Shown one piece after another: positions 176 through 59,454 of a stretch of 64,000 bases of DNA. Positions within the stretch are counted from its first letter, which is position 1; every line of letters starts with the position of its first letter. Origin of the DNA: a virus (lineage: Duplodnaviria; Caudoviricetes); IMG/VR virus record IMGVR_UViG_3300009610_000008, positions 918 to 64,917 of that record. One strand, 5' to 3'. The position numbers and the translations under genes are program-made. The notes beneath the pieces are model-generated. The model was not told the DNA's origin. It saw nothing but the letters and a program-made list of their open reading frames with translations, and ran no database searches.

Positions 176-1375
176 ATGGCTAGACTAACGCAAGCAGACT
201 TACTGCACCAGTGGTGTAACCGGGGGGTAACTGAGCATCAACACTCGGGTAACCTTGCCATCACCACCAACGGCAGGGTAATGACCTACGATGGCACAGT
301 GGTAGGCGTGCATCTCAACATAGGCGGGGTACTAATCACACTCTATGCCGACTATGTGGACACCCCATCCCGCTCCCGTGTCTCACCCCACTGGATACCA
401 GGGGAGATACGGCGCGGCATGCCCACTGACCAGCATCATGCGGTGCGGGTATCCAAGCATGTCCTGGGGTACCAGTTGTACTGGCTCAATGGACGGGATG
501 ACCATGCATTACTACGCCACCTGGGGTATCGCATGGTGTCGCAATGGGGTGGGCTGGAGCGGGATGATGCCAAGCTGGCACGCATGAAGGGCAGGCGGTA
601 CGGCGCAATGGTTGCCCACCAGGGGGAATGCGAGGAACGGGCTGAGACGCTGGCCCGGCTGGACACTCTAACTAATGGCACGGTGGGTGAGTTGGCCACC
701 TATCGCAAGGCCCTGCTCGATTCACGATGGACAGACAGTGAGATGGAGGTGGCCAAGGTCTACAGCGACAAGTGGCAGGAGGTGGACAGTGACCGGGTCC
801 ACAGGCATGGGGCATTTGGCCGTGTCTCCTGGGAGGAACAGCAGCGGCGGCGTCGGCAACGTGACATAGAGAGGCAGGCCAAGGAGGAGAAGGACAGTGA
901 GTACTGGACAGCGGATCGCATTGCTGAACTCATCCAGCAGTGGAAGGCCGGGTCCAACAGTGGCCTGTCATACAGCAGTACTGTCCCCCAGTGGGTACTC
1001 ACCAGTGTCGGTGTGACTACCTATCTACGCATCGTAGGCAACGAGGTCGAGACATCACGTGGCGCACGCATAGGTATACGGGCGGCGGCACGGCTGTTGC
1101 AACTGTGTGATGCCACATGGGCAGGCGGGGTGGAGTTGGTCTACGACTATGCCAACCCCGGCCCACAGATTGGACCGTACCAACTGCAATGCATCACCAT
1201 GGACAAGGTCGTCATAGGATGTCATACTCTGTTACGCACCACCATCAATGAATTTAGACCCGTGTTCATGGAGCACGCGGCCAAGCTACGGCAACGGGAT
1301 GCGCGGGAAGATGACATCCTCGCCGAGGAACTGCGACCCATACTGGACACAGTGGACGGCGCGGTTAGTCACTAA
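176..1375 (+). CDS. Hypothetical phage early protein (399 aa)
   Basis: Long ORF with GGAGG SD. The C-terminal segment LRIVGNEVETSRGARI...IGPYQL...VIGCH resembles uncharacterised phage proteins. Its stop codon lies inside the palindrome at 1364. Confidence 0.8.
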   Translation: MARLTQADLLHQWCNRGVTEHQHSGNLAITTNGRVMTYDGTVVGVHLNIGGVLITLYADYVDTPSRSRVSPHWIPGEIRRGMPTDQHHAVRVSKHVLGYQLYWLNGRDDHALLRHLGYRMVSQWGGLERDDAKLARMKGRRYGAMVAHQGECEERAETLARLDTLTNGTVGELATYRKALLDSRWTDSEMEVAKVYSDKWQEVDSDRVHRHGAFGRVSWEEQQRRRRQRDIERQAKEEKDSEYWTADRIAELIQQWKAGSNSGLSYSSTVPQWVLTSVGVTTYLRIVGNEVETSRGARIGIRAAARLLQLCDATWAGGVELVYDYANPGPQIGPYQLQCITMDKVVIGCHTLLRTTINEFRPVFMEHAAKLRQRDAREDDILAEELRPILDTVDGAVSH

Positions 1376-1394
1376 CAACAAAGGAGAACATCAC

Positions 1395-1742
1395 ATGGAA
1401 AAGACATCACGACGCACCGCCAGTGCCACAATGGCTGACCCCAAGGCCAAGGAGCCGGTGCCCACCGAGGCCAGGGTCATTGCCCCGGATGGCACCATCA
1501 CTGAGGTGCAACCAGTCAATGGACATGACTTCAAGCTGGAGGAATTGTATACCCATACCCAGTCCACCACCGTCCAGATGATCGACATGCCCGACGGCCG
1601 CATCATGTGGATGGATGAGGAAGGGAAGTTGAATGGCAAACCACCAAACCCCACGGCTACTGCACTGGTGGCCAAGTGGCTAATGGCTGGTGATTACATT
1701 GCCGGTCATGCCCTGGTGTGTACGAAACGGATGGTGAGATAG
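1395..1742 (+). CDS. DUF3846-like phage protein
   Basis: AAGGAG SD before ATG 1395. The pattern VIAPDG...LEELY...MWMDEEGKLNGKPPNPTAT...YIAGHALV is typical of DUF3846. Confidence 0.75.
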   Translation: MEKTSRRTASATMADPKAKEPVPTEARVIAPDGTITEVQPVNGHDFKLEELYTHTQSTTVQMIDMPDGRIMWMDEEGKLNGKPPNPTATALVAKWLMAGDYIAGHALVCTKRMVR

Positions 1743-1780
1743 GCACCGTCGCACAGCAACCTATTGATTCGCAAGGAGAG

Positions 1781-2257
1781 ATGAACAACATGAAGAACAC
1801 CGCATCGACATCTAAACTATCCAACTTCCTGGCCGAGCTTAACCTCGTGCTGGCCGGTAGCCACAACCTGCCACTGGACGACGACTGCACTGGTGGCATT
1901 GCCATACTGGGCGAGGATGAGAAGTTGGTAGGCACTGTCCCAGAAGGGTTGACACGTGTCCTGTACCTTGTCTCACGGTACTACGATCTCCTCGCCGCCG
2001 AACACCACCTCGCCTATCAGTTCACCGCCGATGGCAGCAAAGCGGAGACTGTCGCCCAGTCTATGAGTATCCTGTGTAAGGAACGTGCCGACACCTACCG
2101 TGCCATGTTCTGGTGCAGTGTCCACGACACCTACCCCCCAGGTAAGGGATACCAGGGGTTGACACTGAGACAGGGGTGGGCAATCACTGAAACCCCCGAG
2201 GAGGATGCGACAACCATTGTGTCCCTACTCAATCTACTCAAGGGTGGAAGGAGGTGA
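1781..2257 (+). CDS. Hypothetical protein
   Basis: AAGGAG SD before ATG 1781/1790; fits operon packing. Confidence 0.7.
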   Translation: MNNMKNTASTSKLSNFLAELNLVLAGSHNLPLDDDCTGGIAILGEDEKLVGTVPEGLTRVLYLVSRYYDLLAAEHHLAYQFTADGSKAETVAQSMSILCKERADTYRAMFWCSVHDTYPPGKGYQGLTLRQGWAITETPEEDATTIVSLLNLLKGGRR

Positions 2258-2364: not shown

Positions 2365-4230
2365 ATGGCATTGAAACTAAACAACAAGAGACAACAACAA
2401 CAACCAATCACCACAGTTAGTAACCAACCACCGGCTGACCGCTCGGCGGAGCTTGAGGGTCGCGACACCAGCAACGACGCCATCTACTGGCAGGCAGAGA
2501 TGCTCGACAGCTTGACACGGGAGATGCACGCCTCGATCCCCGCCATTACCTCTATCCGCTACGTGGCATTCGGCGCGGATGCACGTGACGAGGAACGTGA
2601 GAAGTTGCTCACCCTCATGGACCGGCCGAGGTTACAACTCACAGGCCAACAGCTTGCGGTACTCCGGGAGTTAGTCACTAACCCACGCCACATCATGGTA
2701 CGTGCACGCGCAGGCACGGGTAAGACTACCATGATCAATGAGTGCATTGCTTGGCTTGTCCTACTGGCACGGGCACGCGGCGCAGTGGCCCCAACGTATA
2801 GCGCACTCAGCTATCACCAGCTTGGCATCGAGTTTATGAGAGACAATGGCATCGAGGGGCGTGACATAGGCAGGCTCATCGAACTGGGCAAGAGCAATGC
2901 GGGTGGCATCTGGGCAATGCTTGACGCACTGGGTATCAAGGCCAACCCCAACGACGACCAGTTAACCAAGGCACGGGTACGGAAGTTACGTGTCAACCTG
3001 CGCCGCCTCCTTGGGTACTGCAAGAACGAGTGGCGCACCCCGACCGACGCCAATGTCAAGGCCCTATGTGACCGCTATGATGTGACACTGGACAACGGCA
3101 CACTAGACGAGGTGTGTGCTGCACTGCGGGAGTTGCTCGTCATGTCATTGGACCTACGCAAGTGGGGGATCGGCTTTGATGACCAACTCTGGTGGCAAGC
3201 GGAGACACGCGCCGAGTTGACCACTGCACCATCACTCGTATTCGTTGATGAGTACCAGGATACCAACCAACCCCAGGCCGAGATGGTGAGGAAGTTAGTA
3301 CTGGCCGGGGCACGGGTGGTGGTGGTAGGGGACGAGAGACAGGCGATCTTTGGATTCCGCGGAGCCGACACCCGTGCCATGGACAATGGGGAGGTACTGC
3401 TACGTGGCACCGATGATAGAGGGTTGACTGTACTGCCACTGACACAGACGAGGCGCTGTTCCGAGATGGTGGTGCGCCTCACCCAGGCGATAGTACCAGA
3501 CTTCGAATGCCTCCCCGGCACTGCCAAGGGTGGGCTGGGCGTGGTGCAGGACACTGAGCTAATCGCATGGCTGAAACCCGGTGACGTGGTACTCTGCCGC
3601 AACAACGCTGACTTGGTTGCACTCGCCTACAGGTTACTGTCTAAGTCAATCCCCTGCATGATCAAGGGGCGGGACATTGGCGATAAGCTATGCGACCTCG
3701 TCGATGAGGTCAACGCTGGTGGTGAACTGGGTAGGGTGGAGGAGTTTGGTATATCACTGCGGGATTGGTACATGGCCAAGCGGAAGCCACTGCTCATGGA
3801 GGGGGATGATGCCGAGCGACGCCTTGCCACCCTCCAGGACCAGTACGACTGCTTGAACATACTCGCAATGGAAGGCATGGACGCGGGTAAGATCAAGAAT
3901 ACAATACGCTTTGTCTTTGGCGACGGGGCAAGGAATGGGAAGGTAACACTCAGCACTGGCCACAAGTTCAAGGGCTTGGAAGTAGAGACAAGTGATAACA
4001 GACTGGTACTGCTACGCCCCGATAGGCTGGGGTTAACTGGCCGTAACCAGGAGGACACCATGCAGGAGAGCAATGTATTGAATGTCATGTTGACACGTGC
4101 CAAGGGTGGGCTGTACTTTGTCCCATTCGTTGGCAAGAAGGGCACGATGGTCACCATCCCACGGGTACTGGAGGGCCGGTGGTTGGAACTGATAGCCGAG
4201 ACAAAGGAGGTGATTGACAATGCCGATTGA
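2365..4230 (+). CDS. SF1 UvrD/Rep-like DNA helicase
   Basis: Walker A ARAGTGKT, Walker B FVDEYQD, motif III VGDERQAIFGFRGAD, IV LTQTRRC, V STGHKFKGLE, VI LTRAK. Confidence 0.92.
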   Translation: MALKLNNKRQQQQPITTVSNQPPADRSAELEGRDTSNDAIYWQAEMLDSLTREMHASIPAITSIRYVAFGADARDEEREKLLTLMDRPRLQLTGQQLAVLRELVTNPRHIMVRARAGTGKTTMINECIAWLVLLARARGAVAPTYSALSYHQLGIEFMRDNGIEGRDIGRLIELGKSNAGGIWAMLDALGIKANPNDDQLTKARVRKLRVNLRRLLGYCKNEWRTPTDANVKALCDRYDVTLDNGTLDEVCAALRELLVMSLDLRKWGIGFDDQLWWQAETRAELTTAPSLVFVDEYQDTNQPQAEMVRKLVLAGARVVVVGDERQAIFGFRGADTRAMDNGEVLLRGTDDRGLTVLPLTQTRRCSEMVVRLTQAIVPDFECLPGTAKGGLGVVQDTELIAWLKPGDVVLCRNNADLVALAYRLLSKSIPCMIKGRDIGDKLCDLVDEVNAGGELGRVEEFGISLRDWYMAKRKPLLMEGDDAERRLATLQDQYDCLNILAMEGMDAGKIKNTIRFVFGDGARNGKVTLSTGHKFKGLEVETSDNRLVLLRPDRLGLTGRNQEDTMQESNVLNVMLTRAKGGLYFVPFVGKKGTMVTIPRVLEGRWLELIAETKEVIDNAD

Positions 4231-5176: not shown

Positions 5177-5398
5177 TGGTTCACCACAATGCGAACACCG
5201 GTGGACAATCGACCACCTCAGCGGGGAACGTGAACGTTGTAGTAGTCCCGCCACCCACTACTGCGCGAATTGCGACAAAGCCCTCTGTCTCACCGACGTG
5301 CTGGTGTGCGGGGACTTTGGTTTCAATGGTGGTTGCGACGCCAAGTTGGGAGGTCGACCACTGTTGCCCCCGCCTGCGGGGCGGTTGGTGACTAACTG

Positions 5399-5457
5399 AA
5401 ATTTTATTTTACATTTTTCAGTTGACACGCCGCGTCAATCGTTGTATATTCAAATAG
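5399..5457 (+). promoter_or_regulatory. Sigma70 promoter with AT-rich UP element and overlapping TTGAC-N7-GTCAA inverted repeat
   Basis: TTGACA 5422-5427, 17-bp spacer, TATATT 5445-5450; AT tract 5399-5419; inverted repeat 5422-5438. Confidence 0.85.
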
Positions 5458-5681
5458 TGGCGCACGACTTCGCAACCCTCGCTCAACATATAGGAATATC
5501 CACTCGCCACCTATACCGCATACTCAATGAGGGTAGTAGACCTAGTGTCGCAGTGCTAGGCAGGTTGGCGGCAGCCATGGATGTAACCATGGATGAACTA
5601 TTGAACACTATAGACGGCGCGGCAGATGTACAGTTAAGGAAACGTGCTGGCCGTGGCAAGCGACGTAGAGTTAGTAACTAA
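5457..5681 (+). CDS. Small XRE/Cro-type HTH regulator, probably leaderless
   Basis: FATLAQHIGISTRHLYRILNEGSRPSVAVLGRLAAAMDVTMDEL is an HTH_3 pattern. GTG 5457 coincides with the predicted +1; the ORF-track TTG 5442 lies inside the promoter. Confidence 0.85.
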   Translation: MAHDFATLAQHIGISTRHLYRILNEGSRPSVAVLGRLAAAMDVTMDELLNTIDGAADVQLRKRAGRGKRRRVSN

Positions 5682-5707
5682 CCAATCAAGGAGAACAGTT
5701 AACTCGT

Positions 5708-6940
5708 ATGGCAACCGAACAAGTAGCAGTAACCAAGACACCCAAGGCCCCGCCCGTGGCACCATCCAAGGGCAGCAAGGGTACCACGGTGGACCTCACC
5801 GCCACACCCCTGGTCATCACCTCAGCCCAACAGTTGGACGTCAAATCCATTGTCCTGGTTGACAACCCCGGCCGAATGGATGGCGATAACAAGTTGGAGA
5901 CCCTACGCCATGCCATTGAGCAGGCTGGCCAAGTCCTCAACCCCATCACTATTAGACCTACCACCGAAGATGATGGCGACCTCCACGCTGATGGCAAGTA
6001 TGCAGTGGTAGATGGCAGACGACGCTTTCGATGCGCCAAGTCCATTGGATTCAAAACTGTACCCGTTGTCTTGTGGAACCCCGGCAAGGGCAAGGAGCGT
6101 ATCACCAGTGTGCAGGGTGCGATACTTGCCAACCTCGCCAACCGCTCTCTCACTGCCCCTGAAATGTTAAATGCATTCCTGGCCCTGGCTGACGACATGG
6201 ACTGGGATGTCAAGGTCCCCAAGCTGGGCGAGAAGGGCATTGGGACATGTGGCAAGGACGTCGAGAAGTTGGCCCGTTACACTGAGACATCCAAGGCCAC
6301 CATCTACAGGACATTACGTCTCGGTCTACTGGACAAGGACATCCTCAAGAAGGTCCACAACAAAGAAGTTGGTGCCGACGCCGCCCGTGACATGGGTGGG
6401 CTGGTGCAAAATGGGTACCTCACCGAGGAGCAGGCAACGCTTGTCTTCGAGGAAGCCCTGGACATGAATGCCAAGAAGGCGAAGATCGACAATCGCCGTG
6501 ACCCCAACGCCCCAGACACCCGTACCCCCGATCAAATACGGCTCGACAACCTGGAACGTAAGCGTAAGAAACTCAAGCGCGCCGCCGCCGCCAAGGCCAA
6601 CGGGGGTGGTGGTGAGGTTGAGGAAGAGGAGGTCATCGCAGTGTCAAAGGCTGACCTCAAAGTTGCTGCCGCCAAGCTGGAGAAGGAGGGGAAGTTGACC
6701 ACCAAGGCCAGTGCTGCTGTCGCTGAGGCCAGTGCCAAGGGTGCGGGGATCTCGGCTGATGCCAAGCAGATGGCCATGCGATTGAAACATCTCGATGACG
6801 TATGTGAGGATCTCATTAACGATGAAAATCCCCACATCGCCAAGCTGGGTGCGGCTCTCACCAAGTTCATGGAAGGACAACTCCTTGCCCCCGAGTTGGT
6901 GAAACAATTCGAGAAGCACTGCCTCCCCGCCACTGAGTAG
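5708..6940 (+). CDS. parB: ParB/Spo0J/KorB-family protein (ParB N-domain + HTH + K/A/E-rich tail)
   Basis: NPGR, VLNPITIRP, YAVVDGRRRFRCAK..G.KTVPV (GxxR motif), NLANRSLTAPE, then HTH-like VEKLARYTETSKATIYRTLRL; AAGGAG SD. Confidence 0.88.
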   Translation: MATEQVAVTKTPKAPPVAPSKGSKGTTVDLTATPLVITSAQQLDVKSIVLVDNPGRMDGDNKLETLRHAIEQAGQVLNPITIRPTTEDDGDLHADGKYAVVDGRRRFRCAKSIGFKTVPVVLWNPGKGKERITSVQGAILANLANRSLTAPEMLNAFLALADDMDWDVKVPKLGEKGIGTCGKDVEKLARYTETSKATIYRTLRLGLLDKDILKKVHNKEVGADAARDMGGLVQNGYLTEEQATLVFEEALDMNAKKAKIDNRRDPNAPDTRTPDQIRLDNLERKRKKLKRAAAAKANGGGGEVEEEEVIAVSKADLKVAAAKLEKEGKLTTKASAAVAEASAKGAGISADAKQMAMRLKHLDDVCEDLINDENPHIAKLGAALTKFMEGQLLAPELVKQFEKHCLPATE

Positions 6941-7058: not shown

Positions 7059-7089
7059 TAGTTAGTGACCAACAACTGGAGAACCAATC

Positions 7090-8386: not shown

Positions 8387-9049
8387 ATGACAATCAATCG
8401 AGACGAAGTACCAACAGTGGCAGAGCAAGTGTCCTCGCTGGAGAATGGGTATGCTGACCTGCTGTTGGAGAACAAGGCTCTTGGTGAGTCGATCCAGTTA
8501 CTAACCAAGCAGGTGCATGAACTGGAGGATCAACAGGCGATCACGCGGCAGGCATACCAGAACCTACTGGCTGAGAAGGATGGCACTATCGCTGGGCTGG
8601 ACGCCATTGTCGCCGAGAAGAACGCAGAGATCAAAGCCTGTCATGAGACGATCAGGCACAGCAACGAGACGATCAAGGGATTAGACGCGGCACTGGCCCA
8701 GGCGCGGGAATGCAATGCTCGGCTCGACCACCAGTTGGAACAGCAGGGTCGCCGCACGGCCACCAGTGTACGCATCGAGGGGTGGGATAAGCAGGACAAC
8801 ATGGTGAGGGCGAACAGCAGTACCTGCGACTGTGACCACCCAGGCCCGTTCGACAGCAACAACCACTGCGTCAAGTGTGGGCGCAAGTACAACGCACCCA
8901 ACCCTGGCCTCAAGTTTGGCGAGATCCAATTGGCCAAGCGCATCTACCATAACATCCACTACCCGGCGATACGGGCATTGCTTGGGTACGAGACGTGCCG
9001 CATACTGGACATCGTGCTGGACCTGGACCAGCCGGGGGTTAGTGACTAA
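8387..9049 (+). CDS. Coiled-coil protein with Cys-rich (zinc-ribbon-like) segment
   Basis: Heptad-rich N-half, CDC...HCVKCG; AAGGAG SD; stop lies inside the palindrome at 9038. Confidence 0.7.
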   Translation: MTINRDEVPTVAEQVSSLENGYADLLLENKALGESIQLLTKQVHELEDQQAITRQAYQNLLAEKDGTIAGLDAIVAEKNAEIKACHETIRHSNETIKGLDAALAQARECNARLDHQLEQQGRRTATSVRIEGWDKQDNMVRANSSTCDCDHPGPFDSNNHCVKCGRKYNAPNPGLKFGEIQLAKRIYHNIHYPAIRALLGYETCRILDIVLDLDQPGVSD

Positions 9050-9051
9050 CC

Positions 9052-9264: not shown

Positions 9265-10887
9265 ATGCCACTACTTACCCCATCTAAACTGGATCTCCCG
9301 CAGTTCGACAGTTGGCGGGACCAGCAACCCGGTGCCATTGTCGAACTCATCGAAGCCCTCACCCCACTAGACGATGGTGGTGGGGGCTATGATACTGCGG
9401 TACTACCCGACCAAGCAGGGTTTGGTAAATCTGGCGTCTACCTGGGCCTGTCCCAACTAATGCGCCGCAGCGGTAGTGTACGCCGCACCATCATCATGAC
9501 GCAATCCCGTGGCCTACAGGACCAGGTGGGCCGCGATGCGACATTTAGCCAGGACATGAAGGGCAGGGCAAATTATCCCTGTAAGTACAGCGGGTCGCGC
9601 ACCAAGTTCCTCACCTGCAAGACTGGGCCAGATCATGGGTGTGACGTAGGTGATACGTGTACCTACAACAATCGCAAGAACATCTGTGCCAACCACCACA
9701 CGGTAGTCACTAACTATGCCTGCCGCCTATCGATGTCACTGTATCCAAATGCTAAGGGTCTTGGTGACTTCGATCTCAATGTATTAGATGAGGCCCACTT
9801 AGTCCCAGATGAAATCACCCGTGCCCTAGCTGTCGAGCTGGATGGTGGCGAACAGGCCAGGGTACTGAATGACATAGACATGCCCACCCCCGCCACCCCC
9901 AACGGCTGGCAACCCGTCGCACGCAAGTGGCTGCACTGGTACGCCAGTGAGTACACCAGTATGGATGGCAATGGTGCTGTCCAGGACGACGCCGATAGTG
10001 AGGCCAAGGATCTCAAGGACAAGCTGGTCAAGGTCGCCACCTGTAGTGGGCATGAGAACTGGCTGACATACCACAAGGAAGGCGACGGCACCCTGTACAT
10101 GGACGTCATCTGGCCAGGGTTATATGCTAAGAGTGCCTTGTATCCAACTGGCAAGGTACTGCTCACCAGTGCGACCATTACAGCCAAGTCCCTGTCCCAG
10201 CTTGGCATAGCTAGAGACAAGGTCTACTGGCGTAACACTGGTGGGCAGTTTGATCCCCGGCGTTGGCCAGCAGTGTGGATCAAGACATGCCAAGTGAAAC
10301 AGTCCATGCCATCCCACGCCAAGTCTAAGTTACTCAACACCATTGATCAAATCATCCGCACCCGCGCCGTCGAGGGTAATCGCAATGGGATAATCATTAC
10401 GCCCAGTTACGATCTGGCCAAGTGGATTAAACAGGAGTCAATGTATGGACAACGCATTGTCGTGCCTACAACCGCTACTACCCGAATGGAGGTGGACAGG
10501 TTCAAATCCCCCACATCTCTACACCGTGGGGCAGTTCTGTGTAGTCCCGCTATCGGCACAGGTTATGACTTCCCAGGGGACACTAGTAGGTGGGTTATTG
10601 TTCCTAAAGTTCCATACACGTACCATGGAGATCCACTGACGCGAGCTAGACAGGAACGGGATGGGCGTTACAGTGATGGGCTGGTGGCACAGGAGTTGGC
10701 CCAGATGGTGTCACGTTGTATGCGGGGGCCAGCCGACTGGTGTGAGGTGTTTGTGCTGGATGACCTCATCGCCCCGTTCCTCAATAGAAATAGGGATCTA
10801 ATGGTGGACTGGTTCCCCTTGTTTGAACATCGTGGTATACGCAGTGTCGACTGGTTGCCCAAGCTGATGGAGGTGCCAAGTGCCTAG
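9265..10887 (+). CDS. SF2 DinG/XPD-like helicase (Fe-S cluster type)
   Basis: Q-motif WRDQQ, AGFGKS, KGRANYPC plus three further Cys, LDEAH, TSAT, GTGYDFPGD, PKVPY, QMVSRCMR. Confidence 0.9.
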   Translation: MPLLTPSKLDLPQFDSWRDQQPGAIVELIEALTPLDDGGGGYDTAVLPDQAGFGKSGVYLGLSQLMRRSGSVRRTIIMTQSRGLQDQVGRDATFSQDMKGRANYPCKYSGSRTKFLTCKTGPDHGCDVGDTCTYNNRKNICANHHTVVTNYACRLSMSLYPNAKGLGDFDLNVLDEAHLVPDEITRALAVELDGGEQARVLNDIDMPTPATPNGWQPVARKWLHWYASEYTSMDGNGAVQDDADSEAKDLKDKLVKVATCSGHENWLTYHKEGDGTLYMDVIWPGLYAKSALYPTGKVLLTSATITAKSLSQLGIARDKVYWRNTGGQFDPRRWPAVWIKTCQVKQSMPSHAKSKLLNTIDQIIRTRAVEGNRNGIIITPSYDLAKWIKQESMYGQRIVVPTTATTRMEVDRFKSPTSLHRGAVLCSPAIGTGYDFPGDTSRWVIVPKVPYTYHGDPLTRARQERDGRYSDGLVAQELAQMVSRCMRGPADWCEVFVLDDLIAPFLNRNRDLMVDWFPLFEHRGIRSVDWLPKLMEVPSA

Positions 10888-12333: not shown

Positions 12334-12360
12334 TGCATAGCAGTTAGTCACTAACCACAT

Positions 12361-13087: not shown

Positions 13088-13113
13088 TCACTAACGCCAC
13101 ACAGGGGGACAGA

Positions 13114-45729: not shown

Positions 45730-45765
45730 GGAGGACTCCTGTGATGAGAGATTTGGCGTTAGTAA

Positions 45766-47049: not shown

Positions 47050-47106
47050 AATGTGTCTCTGTTCTCCTTGATACTTAGTCACTAACTGTCGCTTACTGTA
47101 ACACGA

Positions 47107-49654: not shown

Positions 49655-49673
49655 GTGGTCTCCTTGTTAGTGA

Positions 49674-51485
49674 CTAACTCGCCAGACGGGATGTTGCAAA
49701 GTGTTCGGTTGTGGTAAAGCGGGCCGAGGCCATCATCTCGGTGTAGAATATGTTACCACTCAGTAGATATCTACAGTTGTCCAGCATGTGGGTGCGGAAT
49801 TGAGACACCCGCTGGGTGAGGTCCTTAGATGGGGATGACGACGTCTCGGCGTAGCGATGATTACGGAACTCGGCGCGCAGCTCAAGTAGGGATTCGGCAA
49901 TAAATAGCCTGGGCCTAACAGTATGACGCCAGGGCTTGGGTTCCAATAGTTCGTCGATCTTGTCATTACCAACCGCATGTGACTTGCGCGGGTCCTGGCA
50001 GTAGATGCCATATTTGCGGTACTCGTCATAGATAAATAAATCTGGCGTCCCTTCCCCTGATATGCGAAACCCCTTGCCGGCCTGGTCCATAAGACGCGAT
50101 ACGATGCGTTCACCACCATCCCGGTGAGTGTAGGTGTACATTTCGTATGGGGTGCCGACGTGTTGACCCACAATTTCGTTGCCTTCTAGAAATGCTAGAT
50201 ACTCGGCGTAGGTGCGGACAGTGTAACGGTTACATTCATCTTCATCTCGGAGCCGTCGTCCAGTGCCGTAAACGTTACTGGGCCAGGATTCCCGATAAAA
50301 GTAGAAGTCATAATCTCTAGTAACCAACATCCATAGGGAGGCATGCTCAGTGCGTGGATGAGGATCAATGGACATGTATAGACAACCGTATTCGGGGATG
50401 GCGGTGTCTTTGATGACGTGGATTTGCTCATTGTATTTTGGGTGGACGAGTGCTCCACCTAATGCCTCGGCCTCAATCTCCATCTCACGTCTCCACATGG
50501 GTGAGCCACGCCCACCGAAGACCTTGGAGACACGTTTGAGTTTGGCCTCGTCGCGCATGGAGGGGTCACAGGAGTAGTGGACACGCAGGAATACCCAGCC
50601 TTGGGGAGAGAGATGTTTGGTTAGGCCGGGGATTGGCCCGGTGACTTCACCACCAAGCGATGGGGTTGGGACGAGTAGGCCACTGAGTCCAACCTTAGAT
50701 AGATCACTGCGGTCGAAGAGATGGGCATAGTTGTAGTCGTCCTGGTGTAGTAATTGATTGTACGACCATGGTACTTGGCGGCACTCTTTCCATACCTCGT
50801 TGAGTGGGCCGGGTTTGGCGGTGGCGATGAGCCAGATGTAGGGGGTTTTGGCGGCCAGGGCATTGGTGACACACTCCAATAGCTCATCCTCTAGGGATGC
50901 CTCGTCAAAAATATATACTGTACCGTGCTCGAAACGTATCTTGTCACTACCACTGGCGAAGGCGGCAGCACTACTGCCATTGGGGAGATTGCATTCCGCG
51001 TATGACTGGCTGTAGAGGTCAAGGGTCAGGTCGCCCAGCCAGTGTTTGCGTAGACGGTCCGTGGAGTTCATGAACAACACCTTGATCTTCTCGATGATCT
51101 TGGCGGCACGGGGTTGGTCGGCACTTTGGACGACTACACGGGTGTCGGGTTGGGTGGCCATCATATGGGCGGCGAGACCGGCGGCGGTCCAGGACATCAT
51201 GAGGGTGCGGGACTTGTAGGCGGCATGGATGATGGACTCGCCACGTGGGGGTCTAACCATGAGGTCGTCGGCGATGTAGTCAAAATAGGGGGAGAGTGGG
51301 AAACCTTTACGACTGTTGGAGTCCTGTTCGTCGACGGTTTTGGTGCCATTGCGTAGCCAATACATGGCCGATTTGGCACTATTGTCCAATGACTCGCGGT
51401 AGATGAGTTCATCGGTTAACTCGGCAATGCTGGTGGCTAGCCGTACGTTGTCGAGCGCCGGGAGTGGGATGAAGGTGTCGGCCAT
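49674..51485 (-). CDS. terL: Terminase large subunit
   Basis: KSRTLMMSW (Walker A variant), YIFDEA, ATAKPG, WRREMEIE, nuclease SIDPH, HMLDNCRY. Confidence 0.92.
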   Translation of the reverse strand: MADTFIPLPALDNVRLATSIAELTDELIYRESLDNSAKSAMYWLRNGTKTVDEQDSNSRKGFPLSPYFDYIADDLMVRPPRGESIIHAAYKSRTLMMSWTAAGLAAHMMATQPDTRVVVQSADQPRAAKIIEKIKVLFMNSTDRLRKHWLGDLTLDLYSQSYAECNLPNGSSAAAFASGSDKIRFEHGTVYIFDEASLEDELLECVTNALAAKTPYIWLIATAKPGPLNEVWKECRQVPWSYNQLLHQDDYNYAHLFDRSDLSKVGLSGLLVPTPSLGGEVTGPIPGLTKHLSPQGWVFLRVHYSCDPSMRDEAKLKRVSKVFGGRGSPMWRREMEIEAEALGGALVHPKYNEQIHVIKDTAIPEYGCLYMSIDPHPRTEHASLWMLVTRDYDFYFYRESWPSNVYGTGRRLRDEDECNRYTVRTYAEYLAFLEGNEIVGQHVGTPYEMYTYTHRDGGERIVSRLMDQAGKGFRISGEGTPDLFIYDEYRKYGIYCQDPRKSHAVGNDKIDELLEPKPWRHTVRPRLFIAESLLELRAEFRNHRYAETSSSPSKDLTQRVSQFRTHMLDNCRYLLSGNIFYTEMMASARFTTTEHFATSRLAS

Positions 51486-52115
51486 TTAGTCACTAACTGG
51501 TGTGACATCAATTATACCTTTGACCCCCGATGCACGTAACGTCCCACCGGCTTGTTGGACGAGTTCGAGGAGCCGTAACTTCAGGTCGTCGGTGGAGAGG
51601 GCGGCTAGTTTGTCGCCGATTTCGTGCTCGACAACAGCCTTGGATGGGTGGTTGGCACCGAGGACATCGAGTAGTTTGGCTGCGGCCATTGTCCTAGTTC
51701 TATGATCGGCTGTGAAATGGGGGTTGCCACCCCTGTCATAGGTCACACGCTCGGCAATCATGGCGTCGTCCAGGACAGCGAATGCCCGTGCAATACGTAC
51801 CCCAACGAGTGCCGCCACCTCCTGGGCCTTGAGGAACATGGCACGTTCCATGGTGGCCTGGGCGACCAGACGTCCATTGCGAATACGTTCACGTAGATAA
51901 GTGGAGAGTTCGGCTTCTGGGATACGAAAGCGGATGGCGAGGGCGGCGATGTATTCGTCAATGTTATCGGCGGCTGGCGGGTAGGCGGCAGTGAAGTCGT
52001 CAATGGTGCGTGACCACCTGGGACTAGATGACCCCACTGCCTTACCCGCCCCGTTGGTGGACACCGTGGGGGAGGTGACCAGGAGAGAGTTACGAGAGTT
52101 GAGTTTAAGTGCCAT
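51486..52115 (-). CDS. Putative terminase small subunit
   Basis: Immediately upstream of TerL; helical; DHRTRTMAAAKLLDVLG...LSTDDLK. Confidence 0.65.
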   Translation of the reverse strand: MALKLNSRNSLLVTSPTVSTNGAGKAVGSSSPRWSRTIDDFTAAYPPAADNIDEYIAALAIRFRIPEAELSTYLRERIRNGRLVAQATMERAMFLKAQEVAALVGVRIARAFAVLDDAMIAERVTYDRGGNPHFTADHRTRTMAAAKLLDVLGANHPSKAVVEHEIGDKLAALSTDDLKLRLLELVQQAGGTLRASGVKGIIDVTPVSD

Positions 52116-52138
52116 GCGGTGGACCACTTAGTGACTAA

Positions 52139-52579
52139 CTATGCCGATTTGCCAAATACAAGCTCCTGGTGAACCACCATCCGTGGGCCAAGTTCCACCT
52201 CACCAGTGCCGACATCATACATATAAGTACGGCCATACATGTCGGGGCCTTGCGAGTAGGCGACGTGGGTGGGGGTGATGGCTTCGATCTCGCAGTAGTC
52301 GTACATCCCACTGCACATCTCGCCATTCCCATTGCCATTCTTGCCCTTGGCCTTTTTAGACTTCGCCTGGGCGCGTGCCTCCTCCATCAGGGCCTCCTGG
52401 ACTTTAGCGGTCTTGGTGGCCTGATTCTCCTTGTCGGTGATGCGGACCCCGTTGGACGCATTGCTGGTGGAGGCACGCTTGGCCTCACGCCGTTCATTGC
52501 TGTACACCTCGGCCTTGGACCCAGTGGGCTTGAGACCCATGTACAGCACTTTCTCGTTCATGTCCATTTTGCTGGGCAT
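52139..52579 (-). CDS. Hypothetical protein
   Basis: GGGAG SD before ATG 52579; downstream of a promoter. Confidence 0.65.
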   Translation of the reverse strand: MPSKMDMNEKVLYMGLKPTGSKAEVYSNERREAKRASTSNASNGVRITDKENQATKTAKVQEALMEEARAQAKSKKAKGKNGNGNGEMCSGMYDYCEIEAITPTHVAYSQGPDMYGRTYMYDVGTGEVELGPRMVVHQELVFGKSA

Positions 52580-52691: not shown

Positions 52692-53051
52692 CTATGCCGG
52701 GTTAGTGACCAACTCCAGTTTGGGATGGCGCAATTGGAATACCAGATTCACTAACCATGCGGCATCGGCGACACGCACGGGGGTGGCGGTTTCGATAGCG
52801 GCGGCAAGTGCAGCGGTTTCATCAACTTCCAGGTTGACGTCGCGGGTGCCGTAGCCGTTGGGCATTTGTTGCCAACTGTACTGCTGGCCAACAATGGTGA
52901 ACCCAGTCTCCACCTGTTCCTGGTCGGTCAGGCGCACCTTGTCGAGGATACGTAAATAGATACTCGCGTCCTTGAGGCTGGTGGCGTTGTGGTTGCCCAC
53001 CATGTTCCACAGGATGATGCGCTGGGGGAAGGTGACGGTGATGGACTGCAT
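52692..53051 (-). CDS. Hypothetical protein (possible fibre chaperone)
   Basis: Follows the fibre gene; TAATG coupling. Confidence 0.6.
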   Translation of the reverse strand: MQSITVTFPQRIILWNMVGNHNATSLKDASIYLRILDKVRLTDQEQVETGFTIVGQQYSWQQMPNGYGTRDVNLEVDETAALAAAIETATPVRVADAAWLVNLVFQLRHPKLELVTNPA

Positions 53052-55353: not shown

Positions 55354-55524
55354 GTTAGTAACTAACCGGTGCTATCGTCGCTTATTGTACTACGCCGGTC
55401 CACTGGTCGCCCGTCGACAGGACAAGATGGAAGAGAGATCCTGCCGTAACCGAGTGGACCGGCGTGTAGTTGGCCAGTGTGGTCGTCCACTCCAACACTG
55501 GCCAAGATGGTGACTAGTAAGTGA

Positions 55525-56332: not shown

Positions 56333-56865
56333 CTGAAACCGGCGGCTTTTAGTTCTGCGTTGCGTTGCTGGAAGGCGGCGGCGTCACCGTCCTTGTCGTA
56401 GTCGAATGCCCACCACCCGGCACTGTACACTTCATACAAGCTGGAGCCGTTAGTGACTAACAGCCAGAACTGTGGGACAGTGACGTAGCCATCTGGGGTC
56501 GGGGCGTAGATGTCGAATATCAACTGCGGCCAGTAGTTCCTGGCCCACTGTAGTACTGCGTCTGCCGTCTCGGGGGTGCAGTAGTCAACTGGGTTAAGGG
56601 GGTAGACGGGACGTTCAAAGCTGTAGCCTAAATTCACACTCCAGGGCCGCTCAAATGTCGATGGACCCACTGGTTGGAGGTTGTTGACATAGTAGATGCA
56701 CTTGGTCACCGGGCTGTAGAGGTAACCGGGCATGGCGCGGACGAGGATTTTGGATAGGTCGATGGCGCGGGCGACAGCCTGCTGGTTGGGGGCAACGCCC
56801 TGAGGACCGGGTGCCGCAGGCACAGTAACAGTAGATGGTGTAGATGGCGTAGATGAGGTAGACAT
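56326..56865 (-). CDS. Hypothetical protein, first gene of the leftward structural operon
   Basis: AGGAGAAC SD. Confidence 0.7.
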   Translation of the reverse strand: MSTSSTPSTPSTVTVPAAPGPQGVAPNQQAVARAIDLSKILVRAMPGYLYSPVTKCIYYVNNLQPVGPSTFERPWSVNLGYSFERPVYPLNPVDYCTPETADAVLQWARNYWPQLIFDIYAPTPDGYVTVPQFWLLVTNGSSLYEVYSAGWWAFDYDKDGDAAAFQQRNAELKAAGFSV

Positions 56866-57865: not shown

Positions 57866-58202
57866 TGCGGGTCACCCCCAGCGAGATATTTAATTTACAG
57901 GTTCTGGCGATGGCGGCAAGGGTGGTGATGGTAGGGAGACGGCCACGCAGGTAGATGTTGCGGATGGTTTGTTCATTCACACCACTACGCTTGGCGAGGG
58001 TCGCTATCGAGCGGTTCGGCACGGTGTCGAGACAGGTATTGATGAATTGCTTTATGTCGTCGCGCAGCAAGCCAGTGTGTGGAGATCCAGGCGCGGTAGT
58101 GCGGCGTGGTGATGGTTTCGTTGGTGGTCTCACTGGTGGTGGTGATGGTGATGGGTGGTTGTGGGTACGCAGTGGTGGGGGTGCGAGGGGTGTTAGTTTC
58201 AT
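57858..58202 (-). CDS. XRE-family HTH regulator
   Basis: AAGGAG SD; SIATLAKRSGVNEQTIRNIYLRGRLPTITTLAAIARTC. Confidence 0.75.
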   Translation of the reverse strand: MKLTPLAPPPLRTHNHPSPSPPPVRPPTKPSPRRTTAPGSPHTGLLRDDIKQFINTCLDTVPNRSIATLAKRSGVNEQTIRNIYLRGRLPTITTLAAIARTCKLNISLGVTRNG

Positions 58203-58920
58203 ATCCAAATATCTCCTTATAGAGTGAATCAATCTGCGGCTGGACGCCAGCGAGTTCTACTGATAGGGTGCGGTGGGCACGAATGGTGGCTGGGAGTGAT
58301 AGTCCATATACCTCTGGCCATTTGGTGGCGAGACTCATGGCAAACGCGGGTGACATGATGGTGCCATCCATGTTGAGGAATAGATAACTACTCGCACGTC
58401 GTCGGCCCTGGCCACGTTTTAAGTTGTAACGACGGGTAGCGACGAGCTTGTCAATGTAACTCCACGCCCACTGGGTGTAACACCCCAATCGTTTGTAGAG
58501 GTCGCGTATTTCCTCCAGGCGGCCGATGTTTAGGGTCGATGCGTCGGCGGGACGGATGCCCAAACCAAGGGCAAACATGAACAGGGCGTTGCGCCGAATA
58601 GTGGAATATCTCATCCGCCGGTCGATCCCGGACAGGGCATGTTCGAGACGGGCACGGGATAGAGATGAGAGTTGGGGTGTGGTTGGGGAACGGGAGAAGG
58701 ACCATAAGTCGGCAAATTGCTCGGGAGTAACTAACCCGCGACTTTTGAGCCATAATGCCAACTTCCTCACCACTTGCCGTAGGGCGCGTTGATCATCGTG
58801 GGGTAGTGTGGTGGACCCGGTGGCTAGATTTGTTGCGTTGTAGGTACCGCCAAGGTCCAGCAATGCCCTAACCCCATGATGGTGGGGGGTGAGGCCGATG
58901 ATGTCGGGGTCAATTGTCAT
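57985..58920 (-). CDS. Degenerate tyrosine recombinase/integrase-like protein
   Basis: RRNALFMFALGLGIRPADASTLNI (box I-like), YLFLNMDG, PATIRAH in place of HxLRH; the box II H/Y is not evident. Confidence 0.55.
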   Translation of the reverse strand: MTIDPDIIGLTPHHHGVRALLDLGGTYNATNLATGSTTLPHDDQRALRQVVRKLALWLKSRGLVTPEQFADLWSFSRSPTTPQLSSLSRARLEHALSGIDRRMRYSTIRRNALFMFALGLGIRPADASTLNIGRLEEIRDLYKRLGCYTQWAWSYIDKLVATRRYNLKRGQGRRRASSYLFLNMDGTIMSPAFAMSLATKWPEVYGLSLPATIRAHRTLSVELAGVQPQIDSLYKEIFGYETNTPRTPTTAYPQPPITITTTSETTNETITTPHYRAWISTHWLAARRHKAIHQYLSRHRAEPLDSDPRQA

Positions 58921-59205
58921 TTTGTCAAAACCGGAAAAACACAGTACTGTGTGTCTTATATTTCTTCAAAGTATATACTGTGTATTACTGGATTTGAGAC
59001 GATGTATATGAAAACATTGGGGTTAGGTGCGATTTTGAAATGTTTTGAATTGGGGCAAATGGACGGTTTGGGCCGACGTTGGCGCAGGACGTAAAAATGA
59101 CCATTCCGTGTAGGGGAGTACGTGGGATGGTGGAAAATGGTCGTCCTGGGTCAATTGTGTGGGTTTTCGCCATATATTCGCCCCTTGTTAGTCACTAACC
59201 GCCCG

Positions 59206-59454
59206 TTAGTCACTAACTTTCGACATAATTTCCCGTATTTGCGCCATAATCTGGTCCGGGGTCAGCATCCGCGCCCTCGATTTTGCCACTAATGTACGAA
59301 TTTGCTGTATTGCCCACAACTTCTGGTCCACTTTTGGCCGTTTCCCCAACTTATTGTAGTCAACGTTCATCCAGATGCCATATTTTGGCTCTGGTGTCGG
59401 GTTCACTGTCACCTCGTAGCCTGCAATCCACGGTTTCAGCGGTATTTTTGCCAT
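59206..59454 (-). CDS. Small hypothetical protein
   Basis: 82-aa ORF whose stop lies inside the palindrome at 59205. Confidence 0.55.
   Translation of the reverse strand: MAKIPLKPWIAGYEVTVNPTPEPKYGIWMNVDYNKLGKRPKVDQKLWAIQQIRTLVAKSRARMLTPDQIMAQIREIMSKVSD

Follow-up and report, generated by a model that had tools for sequence, protein, structure and literature searches.

An evenly spaced 13-bp palindrome across a phage genome, a probable DNA-level binding array, and its candidate ParB-type reader

Precedents and the repeated palindrome

The repeats described here have their closest precedents in Cluster O mycobacteriophages, which carry 17-bp repeats that are unexplained and between which the authors of the study describe insertion or deletion (PMC4351075), and in the plasmid operators of KorB. 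In the KorB study the operator core is TTTAGCGGCTAAA and the protein reaches promoters up to 1.5 kb away by sliding (PMC11790492). Phage Corndog is the one published analogue with a ParB-like gene, and its sites are not evenly placed (CV 1.06). The stoperators of Cluster A mycobacteriophages are 13-mers, more than 20 in number, that lie in short intergenic spaces; they lack symmetry, are aligned with the direction of transcription and each bind a protein monomer (PMC9283540).

The window analyzed here, a stretch of 64,000 nucleotides, comprises bases 918-64917 of the 64,917-bp record of an uncultured phage, nearly the whole of it. We find that it carries the palindrome GTTAGTNACTAAC (GTTAGT-N-ACTAAC, 13 bases, read straight from the phage sequence), which has in common with the KorB operator both the 6+1+6 layout and the TTAG/CTAA core. 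The window holds 27 exact copies, against 0.01 expected from shuffles, 23 copies with one mismatch and 6 with two; the whole 64,917-bp record contains the same 27 exact copies and none of the pattern read backwards, which served as control. An 11-base core with at most one mismatch matches 51 times, against 0.49 expected. The 50 copies with no or one mismatch form the array used in the site tests, which extends from 128 to 63347, past both ends of the interval 1364..59217 given in an earlier, sequence-only reading of this DNA. The sites have no orientation and are listed without strand; "relatives" are two complete genomes, G1 and G2, ~74% identical over an alignment of ~42 kb with this genome, G0.

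Sites from 128 to 23365:
128..140, one mismatch (GTTAGTAACCAAC): intergenic, 36 nt before start at 176
1364..1376, exact: its TAA is the stop of ORF 176-1375
2416..2428, one mismatch: within helicase ORF 2365-4230
2670..2682, exact: within helicase ORF (LVTN); retained in both relatives
5384..5396, one mismatch: 26 nt ahead of the -35 element in a sigma-70-like promoter (5422-5450); supplies a TGA stop
5670..5682, exact: TAA stop of small HTH gene, 26 nt before ParB-like gene
7061..7073, one mismatch: 17 nt before start at 7090; exact in both relatives
9038..9050, exact: TAA stop of 8387-9049; next start 2 nt on
9702..9714, one mismatch: within helicase ORF 9265-10887
11161..11173, exact: LVTN, 12 nt before stop of ORF 10880-11185
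12343..12355, exact: intergenic; left border of a two-gene cassette absent here in G1 and G2
13083..13095, exact: TAG stop of 12869-13087; right border of the two-gene cassette
13506..13518, one mismatch: within ORF (LVTT); lost in relatives
15081..15093, one mismatch: within ORF 14821-15225 (LVTN)
17415..17427, exact: TAG stop of 16970-17419
19215..19227, one mismatch: within UDG-exonuclease ORF (LVTN); exact in both relatives
20391, two mismatches: contains the stop at 20395
20567..20579, exact: TAG stop of 20401-20571
21090..21102, one mismatch: within ORF 20965-21531 (LVTT); lost in relatives
21520..21532, one mismatch: TAA stop of 20965-21531
21816..21828, exact: TAG stop of 21626-21820; overlaps polymerase ORF start
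22206..22218, one mismatch: within polymerase ORF (LVTT)
23353..23365, exact: convergent junction of the two arms, 7 nt past polymerase stop; then a G+C hairpin

Sites from 24318 to 63359:
24318..24330, one mismatch: between ORFs 24341-28162 and 23508-24326 (- strand)
27500..27512, one mismatch: within 1273-aa ORF (LVTK)
27857..27869, exact: 14 nt past stop of 27883-29436; within a gene only if 28162 is the start of the long ORF
29448..29460, one mismatch: intergenic
32397..32409, one mismatch: intergenic
32611..32623, one mismatch: intergenic
32856..32868, exact: within 738-aa ORF (LVTN)
33762..33774, exact: within 738-aa ORF (LVTN)
36522..36534, exact: intergenic, start 11 nt on
38292..38304, one mismatch: last codons (LVTK) of ORF 38289-38594
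38586..38598, one mismatch: TAG stop of 38594-39673
39611..39623, exact: 14 nt past stop of 39637-40293; retained in both relatives
40297..40309, exact: fills gap between two ORFs; retained in both relatives
42604..42616, exact: intergenic, ~5 nt before start; exact in G1, G2 alignment ends after 12 of 13 bases
44161..44173, one mismatch: directly before SD; exact in both relatives
45758..45770, exact: TAG stop of 45766-47082, upstream of capsid gene
47074..47086, one mismatch: before SD; exact in both relatives
49666..49678, exact: TAG stop of terminase-like ORF 49674-51485; retained in both relatives
51485..51497, one mismatch: TAA stop of 51486-52127; exact in both relatives
52127..52139, one mismatch: fills gap between two ORFs
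52701..52713, one mismatch: last codons (LVTN) of 52692-53051; exact in both relatives
55354..55366, exact: abuts ATG of 53353-55353
56449..56461, exact: within ORF 56326-56865 (LVTN)
59187..59199, exact: first of a pair 5 nt apart
59205..59217, exact: second of the pair with 59187..59199; TAA stop of 59206-59454
59894..59906, exact: 1.3-kb non-coding region between divergent arms
60766..60778, exact: same 1.3-kb non-coding region as the 59894 copy; retained in both relatives
63347..63359, exact: intergenic, early right-hand block

Three tandem CGTTGACGCAA units lie directly downstream of the exact copy at 11161..11173.

Placement, spacing and conservation of the sites

The observation from which this analysis started, that the motif supplies the stop codons of many genes, is confirmed: every listed stop matches the ORF list and the site list, with TAA stops at 1375, 5681, 9049, 21531, 51486 and 59206 and TAG stops at 13087, 17419, 20571, 21820, 38594, 45766 and 49674. 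The listed stop at 20395 is likewise present, in a copy with two mismatches. Copies just before an SD or start codon lie where they had been reported (7061, 36522, 40297, 42604, 44161, 47074 and 55354). Set against permutations with uniform placement, a stop codon falls inside 14 of the 50 copies, where the null averages 0.65 and never exceeds 5; 30 copies have a stop no more than 30 nt away (null mean 4.4) and 33 are not wholly within a gene (null mean 4.8). The claim of a site at most cistron boundaries was, however, overstated, since in the ORF map of this analysis 31 of 73 junctions have a copy and 42 do not, which also argues against a role tied to the junction itself. Occupancy differs by block: the structural block has a copy at 16 of 24 junctions, the replication block at 11 of 35 and the early right-hand block at 1 of 6. 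The early regions have roomy intergenic gaps without the motif, whereas elsewhere copies are squeezed into stop codons.

On both strands the motif closes with TAA in frame 1 and begins with TAG in frame 3, and the LVTN frame alone is free of stops. Therefore a copy within a gene must use LVTN; intragenic copies do use it, as had been noticed, not by preference but as the sole frame open to them. Barred from two of three frames on both strands, the motif settles at gene ends, and the overlap with stop codons is most likely a side effect of fitting sites into a tightly packed genome. At the gene end upstream of the ParB-like gene, the same motif supplies the stop through TAG in G1 and through TAA in G0 and G2. 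LVTN tetrapeptides occur 10 times, against 0.34 expected from amino-acid frequencies, and all ten are written TTA/TTG GTS ACT AAC (8 TTA, 2 TTG) in rare codons, the exact TTA/ACT/AAC choice having a joint codon-usage probability of ~0.01. This supports the view that the motif is selected as DNA and imposed on proteins at their cost, as the sequence-only reading had proposed.

The sites recur on average every ~1.3 kb, and they do so evenly. The coefficient of variation of the gaps is 0.66, 0.55 and 0.62 in the three genomes, against ~0.97 for random placement; under a junction-aware null, in which sites are drawn from real gene junctions, evenness has P ~0.002 and the largest gap is 3,182 bp where 5,854 is expected. 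The sites thus appear to be under a density or spacing requirement, one of the roles that had been suggested. Exclusion from coding frames, which had been named as the explanation that would undo that interpretation, fits much of the junction and stop placement, yet both DNA-level selection and even spacing are supported, so that the interpretation as a whole stands in part.

The array is conserved among relatives. The two complete genomes hold 39 and 43 exact copies and none of the reversed pattern, and three fragments hold 20, 21 and 15; one fragment, G005, is a 99.6% identical stretch of G1. Identity across 45 aligned site pairs is 88.3% at the 12 fixed positions, against 71.4% in the flanks and 57.8% at the centre base. 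Exact sites have 22 aligned partners, of which 17 are also exact and 4 carry a single mismatch, while 1 has lost the motif. All 9 loci with a capsid protein of 92% identity or more contain the motif, and none of the 53 with a capsid protein of 37% identity or less does. When the breakpoints of relatives were compared, 15 of 92 alignable-block ends lay within 15 bp of a motif, where 3.0 are expected at random and 20.4 for gene junctions in general; there is no excess at motifs over ordinary junctions, contrary to the suggested recombination hot-spot. The only clear case of motif-bordered exchange is the two-gene cassette 12343-13095, flanked by two copies here and represented by a single copy in G1 and G2, in which part of the cassette sits elsewhere in the genome.

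A candidate ParB-type reader

We consider the palindrome to be, very probably, a DNA-level protein-binding array of ~50 candidate sites. Which protein would read it? Two neighboring genes are candidates:

5708..6940, + strand: ParB/Noc/KorB-family protein of 410 aa with an N-terminal nucleotide-binding domain and a helix-turn-helix (HTH) DNA-binding domain; proposed motif reader
5457..5681, + strand: small Cro/C1-type HTH protein, encoded directly ahead of the ParB-like gene; possible alternative or accessory reader

The phage encodes a full-length ParB-type protein. The product of 5708-6940 matches Pfam ParB_N, its sequence matches to ParB and Noc structures extend through the HTH region with the GxRRxR box kept, and its AlphaFold model (mean pLDDT 80.7) finds Noc, ParB and KorB chains as best Foldseek matches, over 200-260 columns. 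The family is as narrow in range as the motif array, only 2 of 1.84 billion representatives scoring below 1e-30. Other findings temper the assignment. The catalytic box reads ANLAN where Noc has ENLQR, therefore a ParB-like CTP-hydrolysis cycle is not assured, and none of the 77 ORFs encodes a ParA partner. Three other DNA-binding candidates, the HTH protein 5457-5681, the winged-helix protein 14821-15225 and the C-terminal winged helix of 7090-8370, are equally kept in both relatives, so presence or absence does not single out the ParB-type protein. No repeated palindrome was found when 13 loci surrounding a weak ParB-like match were examined in other contigs, viral and metagenomic, and a ParB-like gene alone is thus no predictor of an array. 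Nor does the motif sequence itself point to ParB, given that the identical 13-mer in cellular genomes forms tandem operator pairs, beside TetR-family genes in 3 of 15 loci. The uneven placement of sites in phage Corndog speaks against the assignment as well. That the ParB-type protein is the reader of the array is therefore a tentative assignment, which we place somewhat below the probable.

Competing explanations and a possible role

The sites might instead be operators for a small conventional repressor, the HTH protein 5457-5681 or another, that blocks RNA polymerase at many points and silences or times the whole genome as Cluster A stoperators do. The recognition region of this HTH protein is invariant in the three genomes, its gene follows the left arm's best sigma-70-like promoter, a motif copy stands ahead of that promoter and another coincides with the gene's own stop codon, and in cellular genomes the identical 13-mer serves as a tandem operator beside TetR-type HTH regulators. 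Stoperators resemble the phage sites in length, number and intergenic position; unlike them (PMC9283540), the phage sites are symmetric and unoriented. There is no integrase, recombinase or other sign of lysogeny among the 77 ORFs, and the fragment labelled provirus is a 99.6% identical piece of G1 without host flank. A roadblock accounts for neither the even spacing nor the copies deep in long genes. We regard this explanation as unlikely.

Reading by a host protein, or use as a mark for a host or phage enzyme (nuclease protection, a base-modification or nicking target, lagging-strand priming), is quite unlikely. Phage thymine dioxygenases are on record with ParB-like partners that have no DNA-binding domain, unlike the phage protein 5708-6940 (bioRxiv 10.1101/2025.08.14.668559). 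The even spacing of ~1.3 kb would suit a mark recurring along the DNA and the phage carries several nucleotide-pool enzymes, but no dioxygenase, nickase, primase family or above-threshold methyltransferase was found among the 77 ORFs.

In the manner of the late promoters of phage T4, the motif could recur ahead of many genes to drive middle and late transcription, as a promoter element or an activator site; we hold this very unlikely. Occupancy does peak in the structural block and many copies lie 11-30 nt ahead of a start codon. However, the flanks show no conservation and no second element, the copies at 9038, 21816, 51485 and 55354 abut or overlap the next start codon, the perfect palindrome has no direction, copies lie within genes and at the convergent terminator region, and no phage RNA polymerase or sigma factor was found in the phage ORFs. 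The sequence-only reading had likewise argued against promoter control alone.

A role in the transcript at cistron boundaries, which that reading had entertained as RNA processing, is highly improbable, be it a processing site, a protein-bound small hairpin or an A+U-rich aid to ribosome start on the next gene. About two thirds of the copies occupy the space from a stop to the following SD or start, and the motif is A+U-rich within a genome of 54-61% G+C. On the other hand, no stable hairpin forms at the motif: the best fold, at -1.1 kcal/mol, has 5 pairs closing a 3-base loop and is not lengthened by the flanks, whose complementarity is at chance (10-16 of 50). Positions 6 and 8 stay complementary though they would be loop positions in any hairpin, single changes preserve a G-U pair no more often than they break the pairing (4 versus 6), the centre base has no strand bias, and no Rfam family matches. 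Copies also occur deep in genes, and 42 junctions lack one. Because conservation covers both halves and leaves the centre free (G 23, C 22, A 3 and T 2 in transcription orientation, 50 copies), the hairpin is marginal and sites lie both where the arms converge and within the 1.3-kb non-coding control region, the symmetry of the motif points to double-stranded DNA as what is read.

That the copies are mainly recombination sites for module swaps between relatives, or were spread by such exchange, is extremely improbable, for although the cassette 12343-13095 recalls the insertion or deletion between Cluster O repeats (PMC4351075), block ends near motifs fall below the junction expectation, 13 bp is short for homologous exchange, and the even spacing and strict conservation of intragenic copies are left unexplained.

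We therefore return to a DNA-level array for a dimeric protein, with the ParB-type protein as likeliest reader and placement set by geometry, a composite statement that in our judgment falls only just short of probable. The reader would bind as a symmetric dimer at ~50 sites across the whole 65-kb phage chromosome, their spread leaving no stretch longer than ~3.2 kb without one. Since TAG and TAA close two of three frames on either strand and ~88% of the genome is coding, sites would go to short spacers or onto stop codons, and long genes without a spacer would take Leu-Val-Thr-Asn. The ParB-type protein is proposed to recognize the motif duplex GTTAGTSACTAAC, to load at each site and then to spread or slide sideways, an analogy drawn from Noc on the Bacillus chromosome and from KorB on plasmid RK2. 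Such spreading would cover or mark the whole phage genome, and its purpose may be global transcription control, compaction, or discrimination of phage from host DNA.

Placement of the palindrome in and between genes

We find 27 exact copies of the 13-bp palindrome GTTAGT-N-ACTAAC (GTTAGTSACTAAC) where 0.01 would be expected, together with 23 copies that carry one mismatch and six that carry two. The 27 exact and 23 one-mismatch copies, considered together below, thus constitute a short palindrome of 13 bp repeated on the same replicon, as in ParB-family site systems. When the 50 copies are aligned by transcription direction they have nothing in common beyond the 13 bases, and the centre base is G in 23, C in 22, A in three and T in two of them. 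In the same orientation, the mismatches in this genome (G0) fall in the left half-site six times and in the right half-site 17 times.

The sequence-only reading held that the motif is written into stop codons and gene junctions, and comparison of the ORF list with the site list confirms the observation, every stop that it listed being correct. In the permutation check, a stop codon lies within 14 of the 50 copies (0.65 expected), 30 copies lie at most 30 nt from a stop (4.4 expected) and 33 are not wholly intragenic (4.8 expected). Likewise, an automatic gene caller applied to G0 and its two complete relatives (G1 and G2) classes 34 of 50, 35 of 47 and 36 of 48 copies as intergenic or at the end of a gene; a further 3, 1 and 1 come within 30 nt of such an end, and 13, 11 and 11 are deep in genes.

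Frame 1 of the motif (GTT AGT NAC TAA) and frame 3 (GT TAG) both contain a stop. Frame 2, G TTA GTN ACT AAC, encoding Leu-Val-Thr-Asn, is the only open frame, and because the motif is a palindrome the same restriction applies on both strands. Copies that fall inside genes are therefore forced into the LVTN frame, which in itself is no finding. The tetrapeptide LVTN, on the other hand, occurs 10 times where amino-acid frequencies predict 0.34 (19,651 codons), and all 10 occurrences are spelled TTA/TTG GTS ACT AAC, eight with TTA and two with TTG; the joint probability of the exact TTA/ACT/AAC choice under codon usage is about 0.01. Given this overrepresentation and the fixed codon spelling, the peptide is present in the proteins because the DNA carries the motif. 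Gene ends behave similarly. The gene of the small helix-turn-helix (HTH) protein ends on an orthologous copy with TAA in G0 and G2 and with TAG in G1, indicating that it is the gene end that shifts while the motif stays in place. The overlap with stop codons is most plausibly a side effect of fitting a palindrome rich in stops into a tightly filled genome.

Spacing, conservation and probable DNA-level reading of the sites

The coefficient of variation (CV) of the gaps between sites is 0.66, 0.55 and 0.62 in the three genomes, compared with about 0.97 for random placement. In a junction-aware null, with 33 sites drawn from real junctions and 17 from gene interiors, the observed CV and the observed largest gap (3,182 bp vs 5,854 expected) were each reached in about 0.2% of trials. 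These results support the earlier suggestion that density or spacing is selected. Roles specific to junctions, which had been proposed alongside it, find no such support, as 31 of 73 junctions carry a copy and the ends of alignable blocks show no excess over gene junctions. In the early right-hand block six gaps measure 78-128 nt, yet only one copy is present there, and in the structural block the copies are pressed onto stop codons or take up whole gaps of 11-15 nt. Among genes of at least 1.5 kb, four of 13 have one or two internal copies, where the two copies in a 3.8-kb ORF count as internal only if that ORF starts at 28162. The placement fits a need for one site per few kilobases, put where the cost is least.

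A search of viral contigs for two motif copies within 30 nt returned four contigs, all of them relatives. G1 (67,145 bp) has 39 exact copies, G2 (65,851 bp) has 43, and three fragments have 20, 21 and 15, one of the fragments (G005) being a 99.6% identical stretch of G1; the reversed-pattern control gave no copies in the relatives. Exact and one-mismatch copies number 27 and 23 in G0, 39 and 8 in G1, and 43 and 5 in G2, with similar totals. The three genomes are about 74% identical across about 42 kb. In 45 pairs of aligned sites, identity is 88.3% at the 12 fixed positions, compared with 71.4% in the flanks and 57.8% at the centre. Exact sites of G0 have an exact partner in 17 of 22 alignments, and the 23 aligned partners of its one-mismatch sites comprise eight exact copies, six with one mismatch, one with two and eight that are lost; given this mixed fate, part of the 23 may be decayed or chance copies. 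All nine loci with a capsid protein of 92% identity or more have the motif, against none of 53 loci in which the capsid is at most 37% identical; those 53 lack other repeated palindromes too. By these comparisons the array characterises a single narrow clade. Two further capsid relatives, P0088 and P0089, are 66-74% identical.

Recombination at the copies had been raised as a junction-level role. Of 92 ends of alignable blocks, 15 lie at most 15 bp from a copy. Random points would give 3.0, but gene junctions alone would give 20.4, and a hot-spot is therefore not borne out. In G0 a copy stands on either side of the two genes between 12343 and 13095, where G1 and G2 have a single copy, and part of the segment is found elsewhere in both relatives. 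Judging from this one clear event, exchange at copies occurs; it is not shown to be their purpose. As regards lysogeny, the 77 ORFs contain no integrase or recombinase family, and a fragment labelled 'provirus' is without host flank.

Is the motif read as DNA or as RNA? As RNA or single-stranded DNA it could form at most five pairs with a three-base loop (-1.1 and -0.9 kcal/mol), and pairing of the flanks around it is at chance level. Positions 6 and 8 would fall in the hairpin loop, yet they remain complementary. Among single changes, A4 to G or T10 to C is the most frequent; read in transcript orientation, it keeps a G-U pair in four cases and breaks the pair in six. One copy also lies where the arms converge (23353) and two more, 59894 and 60766, in the 1.3-kb non-coding stretch that separates the divergent arms. 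Rfam contains no family matching the motif. The marginal hairpin, the chance-level flanks, the complementary loop positions, the absence of a G-U bias, the site locations and the Rfam result together favour double-stranded DNA read by a symmetric dimer. A phage promoter consensus is improbable, as no flank is conserved and the distance to the next start varies from overlap to 307 nt, and an intrinsic terminator or REP-like hairpin is rejected for want of a stable G+C-rich stem, the terminator scan having picked up one copy only (5384). Scans for sigma-70-type promoters and for terminators gave counts equal to the shuffle level.

The conserved, evenly spread array is very probably a set of binding sites on DNA for a protein.

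Genome setting and candidate readers

The G0 record has 64,917 bp with direct terminal repeats of 108 bp, and the window covers its bases 918-64917. The rightward arm (176 to 23346) contains replication genes, which encode two helicases, a family A polymerase, the ParB-type protein and a fusion of uracil-DNA-glycosylase with an exonuclease. Structural genes make up the leftward arm (59881 to 23508), for instance those for a terminase-like protein and an SU10-type capsid protein. From 60935 the direction is rightward once more, with small early genes. The phage is present in groundwater or sediment samples, and none of the 24 sequencing runs found to contain it is on record as RNA. The features discussed here are as follows.

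Genome bases 1-108 and 64810-64917 (second copy, window 63893-64000): 108-bp terminal repeat, 100% identical between G0 and G2 (loci L017 and L020)
Window 5422-5460: best promoter-like site of the left arm, TTGACA-17-TATATT, ending 7 nt ahead of the GTG at 5457
Window 5457-5681, + strand: small HTH protein, Cro/C1-type, putative DNA binder
Window 5708-6940, + strand: ParB-type protein, 410 aa, putative DNA binder
Window 7090-8370: ORF with a putative DNA-binding C-terminal end
Window 11181-11254: three exact tandem copies of CGTTGACGCAA, directly after the motif copy at 11161
Window 12480-12860, 15222-15731, 18145-19614 and 20965-21531: cluster of nucleotide-pool and repair functions
Window 14821-15225: winged-helix protein, putative DNA binder
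Window 23508-24326, - strand: ORF with a C-terminal PEP-CTERM sorting motif (30.8 bits, cut-off 20.7)
Window 59658-60934: 1.3-kb ORF-free stretch separating the divergent arms, with promoter-like sites in both directions, two motif copies and several G+C-rich inverted repeats

The G0 and G2 records begin at the same base, and the terminal repeat is identical in both whereas the adjoining 460 bp are only 85% identical, which suggests from the alignment that the genome ends are real, physical and strongly conserved rather than an assembly overlap. The ORF-free stretch, which gave no match in an Rfam search, could contain an origin of replication or a long structured leader. The tandem copies of CGTTGACGCAA are followed by two sigma-70-like promoters (TTGACG-16-TAAAAT and TTGACA-17-TAACAT) upstream of a 324-aa gene at 11359, and could be iterons or a stacked promoter region. 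In the relatives, orthologous HTH genes begin at the GTG corresponding to 5457, and the transcript of the small HTH regulator may be leaderless. The PEP-CTERM motif hints at a host with an exosortase system. The nucleotide-pool and repair cluster encodes a MazG-like pyrophosphatase, uracil-DNA-glycosylase fused to a 3'-5' exonuclease, a phosphatase and, with a marginal match (27.1 bits, cut-off 27), a dATP/dGTP diphosphohydrolase N-terminal domain; a non-standard base in the phage DNA is possible. Five small genes separate the polymerase from its exonuclease part. A second repeated palindrome, of the kind of a KorA-type operator, was not found, the next most repeated words being coding repeats and GGAGAACCAATCA; GGAGAACCAATCA(TG) is a ribosome-binding site with its spacer and occurs five to seven times per genome in all three, at several start regions of the window (e.g. 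7074-7092). Among cultured phages, the phage collection gave no match by DNA and only weak matches by capsid protein, in three records all below 60% identity, the best of which, to Caulobacter phage Kuura, covers 80% of the query at 25.5% identity.

All four putative DNA binders are kept in G1 and G2, and presence or absence therefore cannot choose among them. The ParB-type protein matches Pfam ParB_N with 36.6 bits (cut-off 26.3) and Noc over residues 43-203, and it has both the ParB N-terminal nucleotide-binding fold and the helix-turn-helix domain. The arginine box DGRRRFRCA is kept, with G103, R104-R106 and R108 invariant in seven sequences. An AlphaFold-type model (mean pLDDT 80.7) has Noc, ParB and KorB chains as its best Foldseek matches, over 200-260 columns. 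The family is narrow: only its own cluster and one other score below 1e-30 among 1.84 billion representatives, the phage collection contains a single weak match, to an unannotated record, that covers 52% of the query at 26.8% identity, and no relatives were found in prokaryote genomes. P0008, the only distant relative, is 38% identical by BLASTP and 43% by phmmer, and was not placed on contigs of the viral or metagenome collections. ParB-family members are known readers of compact palindromes repeated many times on one replicon. Given the full family layout, this family habit, the likeness to the KorB operator and a family as narrow as the array itself, the phage's ParB/KorB-type protein is our tentative choice as the reader, a possibility we hold somewhat short of even.

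Several results weaken this choice. Where Noc has its ENLQR box, the phage protein has ANLAN in the alignment, no ParA/CbiA-type family is found among the 77 ORFs at E up to 0.01, and 13 loci around a weak ParB-like match in other contigs have no repeated palindrome. In addition, 15 prokaryote genome contigs (loci L096-L110), mostly of Actinobacteria and small archaea, have tandem pairs of the identical 13-mer immediately ahead of genes; the number of such pairs expected by chance in the collection is roughly estimated at 0.07. The neighbouring genes include those for TetR-family proteins (three loci), dCTP deaminase (two), ThyX (one) and archaeal winged-helix ATPases (two). These pairs look like real operators of cellular regulators, which implies that ordinary HTH dimers can read the 13-mer. 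A complex prediction that paired residues 40-300 of the ParB-type protein with the small HTH protein scored 0.00 and was counted neither way. A 426-aa ORF adjoining the ParB-type gene resembles viral proteins, with a weak helicase hint.

Known site arrays and a possible role for the phage array

This kind of array has been seen before, in the Cluster O mycobacteriophages (Corndog and relatives), and never explained. The paper on these phages reports 34 copies of TGTTCGGNNNCCGAACA between and inside genes, with insertions and deletions between copies and similar places in relatives; its authors suggest a dimeric binding protein, leave the role unexplained and doubt promoter control (PMC4351075). 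The likeness is close: in a phage genome of about 70 kb, a single unvarying palindrome with a free centre (a 17-bp repeat there) recurs more than 30 times, and its copies are partly intergenic, partly intragenic and similarly placed in relatives. On the other hand the sequence, TGTTCGG-NNN-CCGAACA there and GTTAGT-N-ACTAAC here, and its length differ, as do host group and phage type, and overlap with stop codons does not figure in that account. We recounted 34 copies in Corndog and find them crowded in one arm and not evenly spaced (CV 1.06), whereas copies here are even. Corndog also encodes a ParB-type protein, gp90, whose match to Spo0J extends through residue 176, into the DNA-binding region. 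The 13-mer and its core were not found in the literature searched.

KorB of plasmid RK2, a ParB-family protein, reads the operator TTTAGCGGCTAAA and is a clamp whose long-range action relies on sliding by up to 1.5 kb (PMC11790492). Its operator shares with the phage motif a 13-bp palindrome, the 6+1+6 layout and the TTAG/CTAA core, and in both replicons a small HTH gene lies nearby (korA in RK2). The similarity to KorB itself is at fold level only, and the ENLQR-type catalytic box is not kept. RK2 has about 12 OB sites on a replicon of similar size and IncC as ParA partner, whereas the phage has 50 sites and no ParA partner was found. Noc of the Bacillus chromosome, the best structural and sequence match, is likewise a ParB-family protein with many dispersed palindromic sites. 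Its sites are 14 bp long and far sparser, and its N-terminal helix tethers DNA to the membrane; in contrast, the first 38 residues of the phage protein are modelled as disordered.

Other systems fit less well. Cluster A stoperators resemble the phage sites in length, number and intergenic habit, being 13-mers found more than 20 times per genome in short intergenic spaces among early and late genes; they are described as asymmetric, oriented with transcription and bound by the monomeric immunity repressor of a temperate phage (PMC9283540). We reject membership in this class, since the phage sites are perfect palindromes without orientation (centre G 23, C 22) and no sign of lysogeny was found. 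ParB-like partners of phage thymine dioxygenases are described as having no DNA-binding domain (bioRxiv 10.1101/2025.08.14.668559), and no thymine dioxygenase is encoded among the 77 ORFs. A ParABS partition system is rejected, as no ParA-type ATPase was found among these ORFs.

What might such an array do? Every position in the genome has a site within about 1.6 kb, compared with a reported reach of 1.5 kb for KorB (PMC11790492). A ParB/KorB-type clamp would load at about 50 sites spaced to match its sliding range, and clamp and sites would jointly coat or condense the entire phage chromosome. The coating could mark phage DNA as self against host DNA, for protection, for a replication or packaging compartment, or for a genome-wide transcription switch. 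This self-marking system, with the Cluster O repeats as its second case, is more doubtful than the choice of reader itself.

Dense phage arrays of one palindrome have been described in detail once, in Cluster O, and the phage here provides a second, unrelated case. What is new is a DNA sequence selected at a cost to proteins, a spacing rule and a specific candidate reader from the sliding-clamp family. For annotation, the motif fixes gene ends in this clade, and genes that are orthologous end on it in different frames. If the link to the ParB-type protein is true, clamps of this type would act in lytic phages, coating or marking the whole viral chromosome, and their role would extend beyond plasmid partition and long-range repression.
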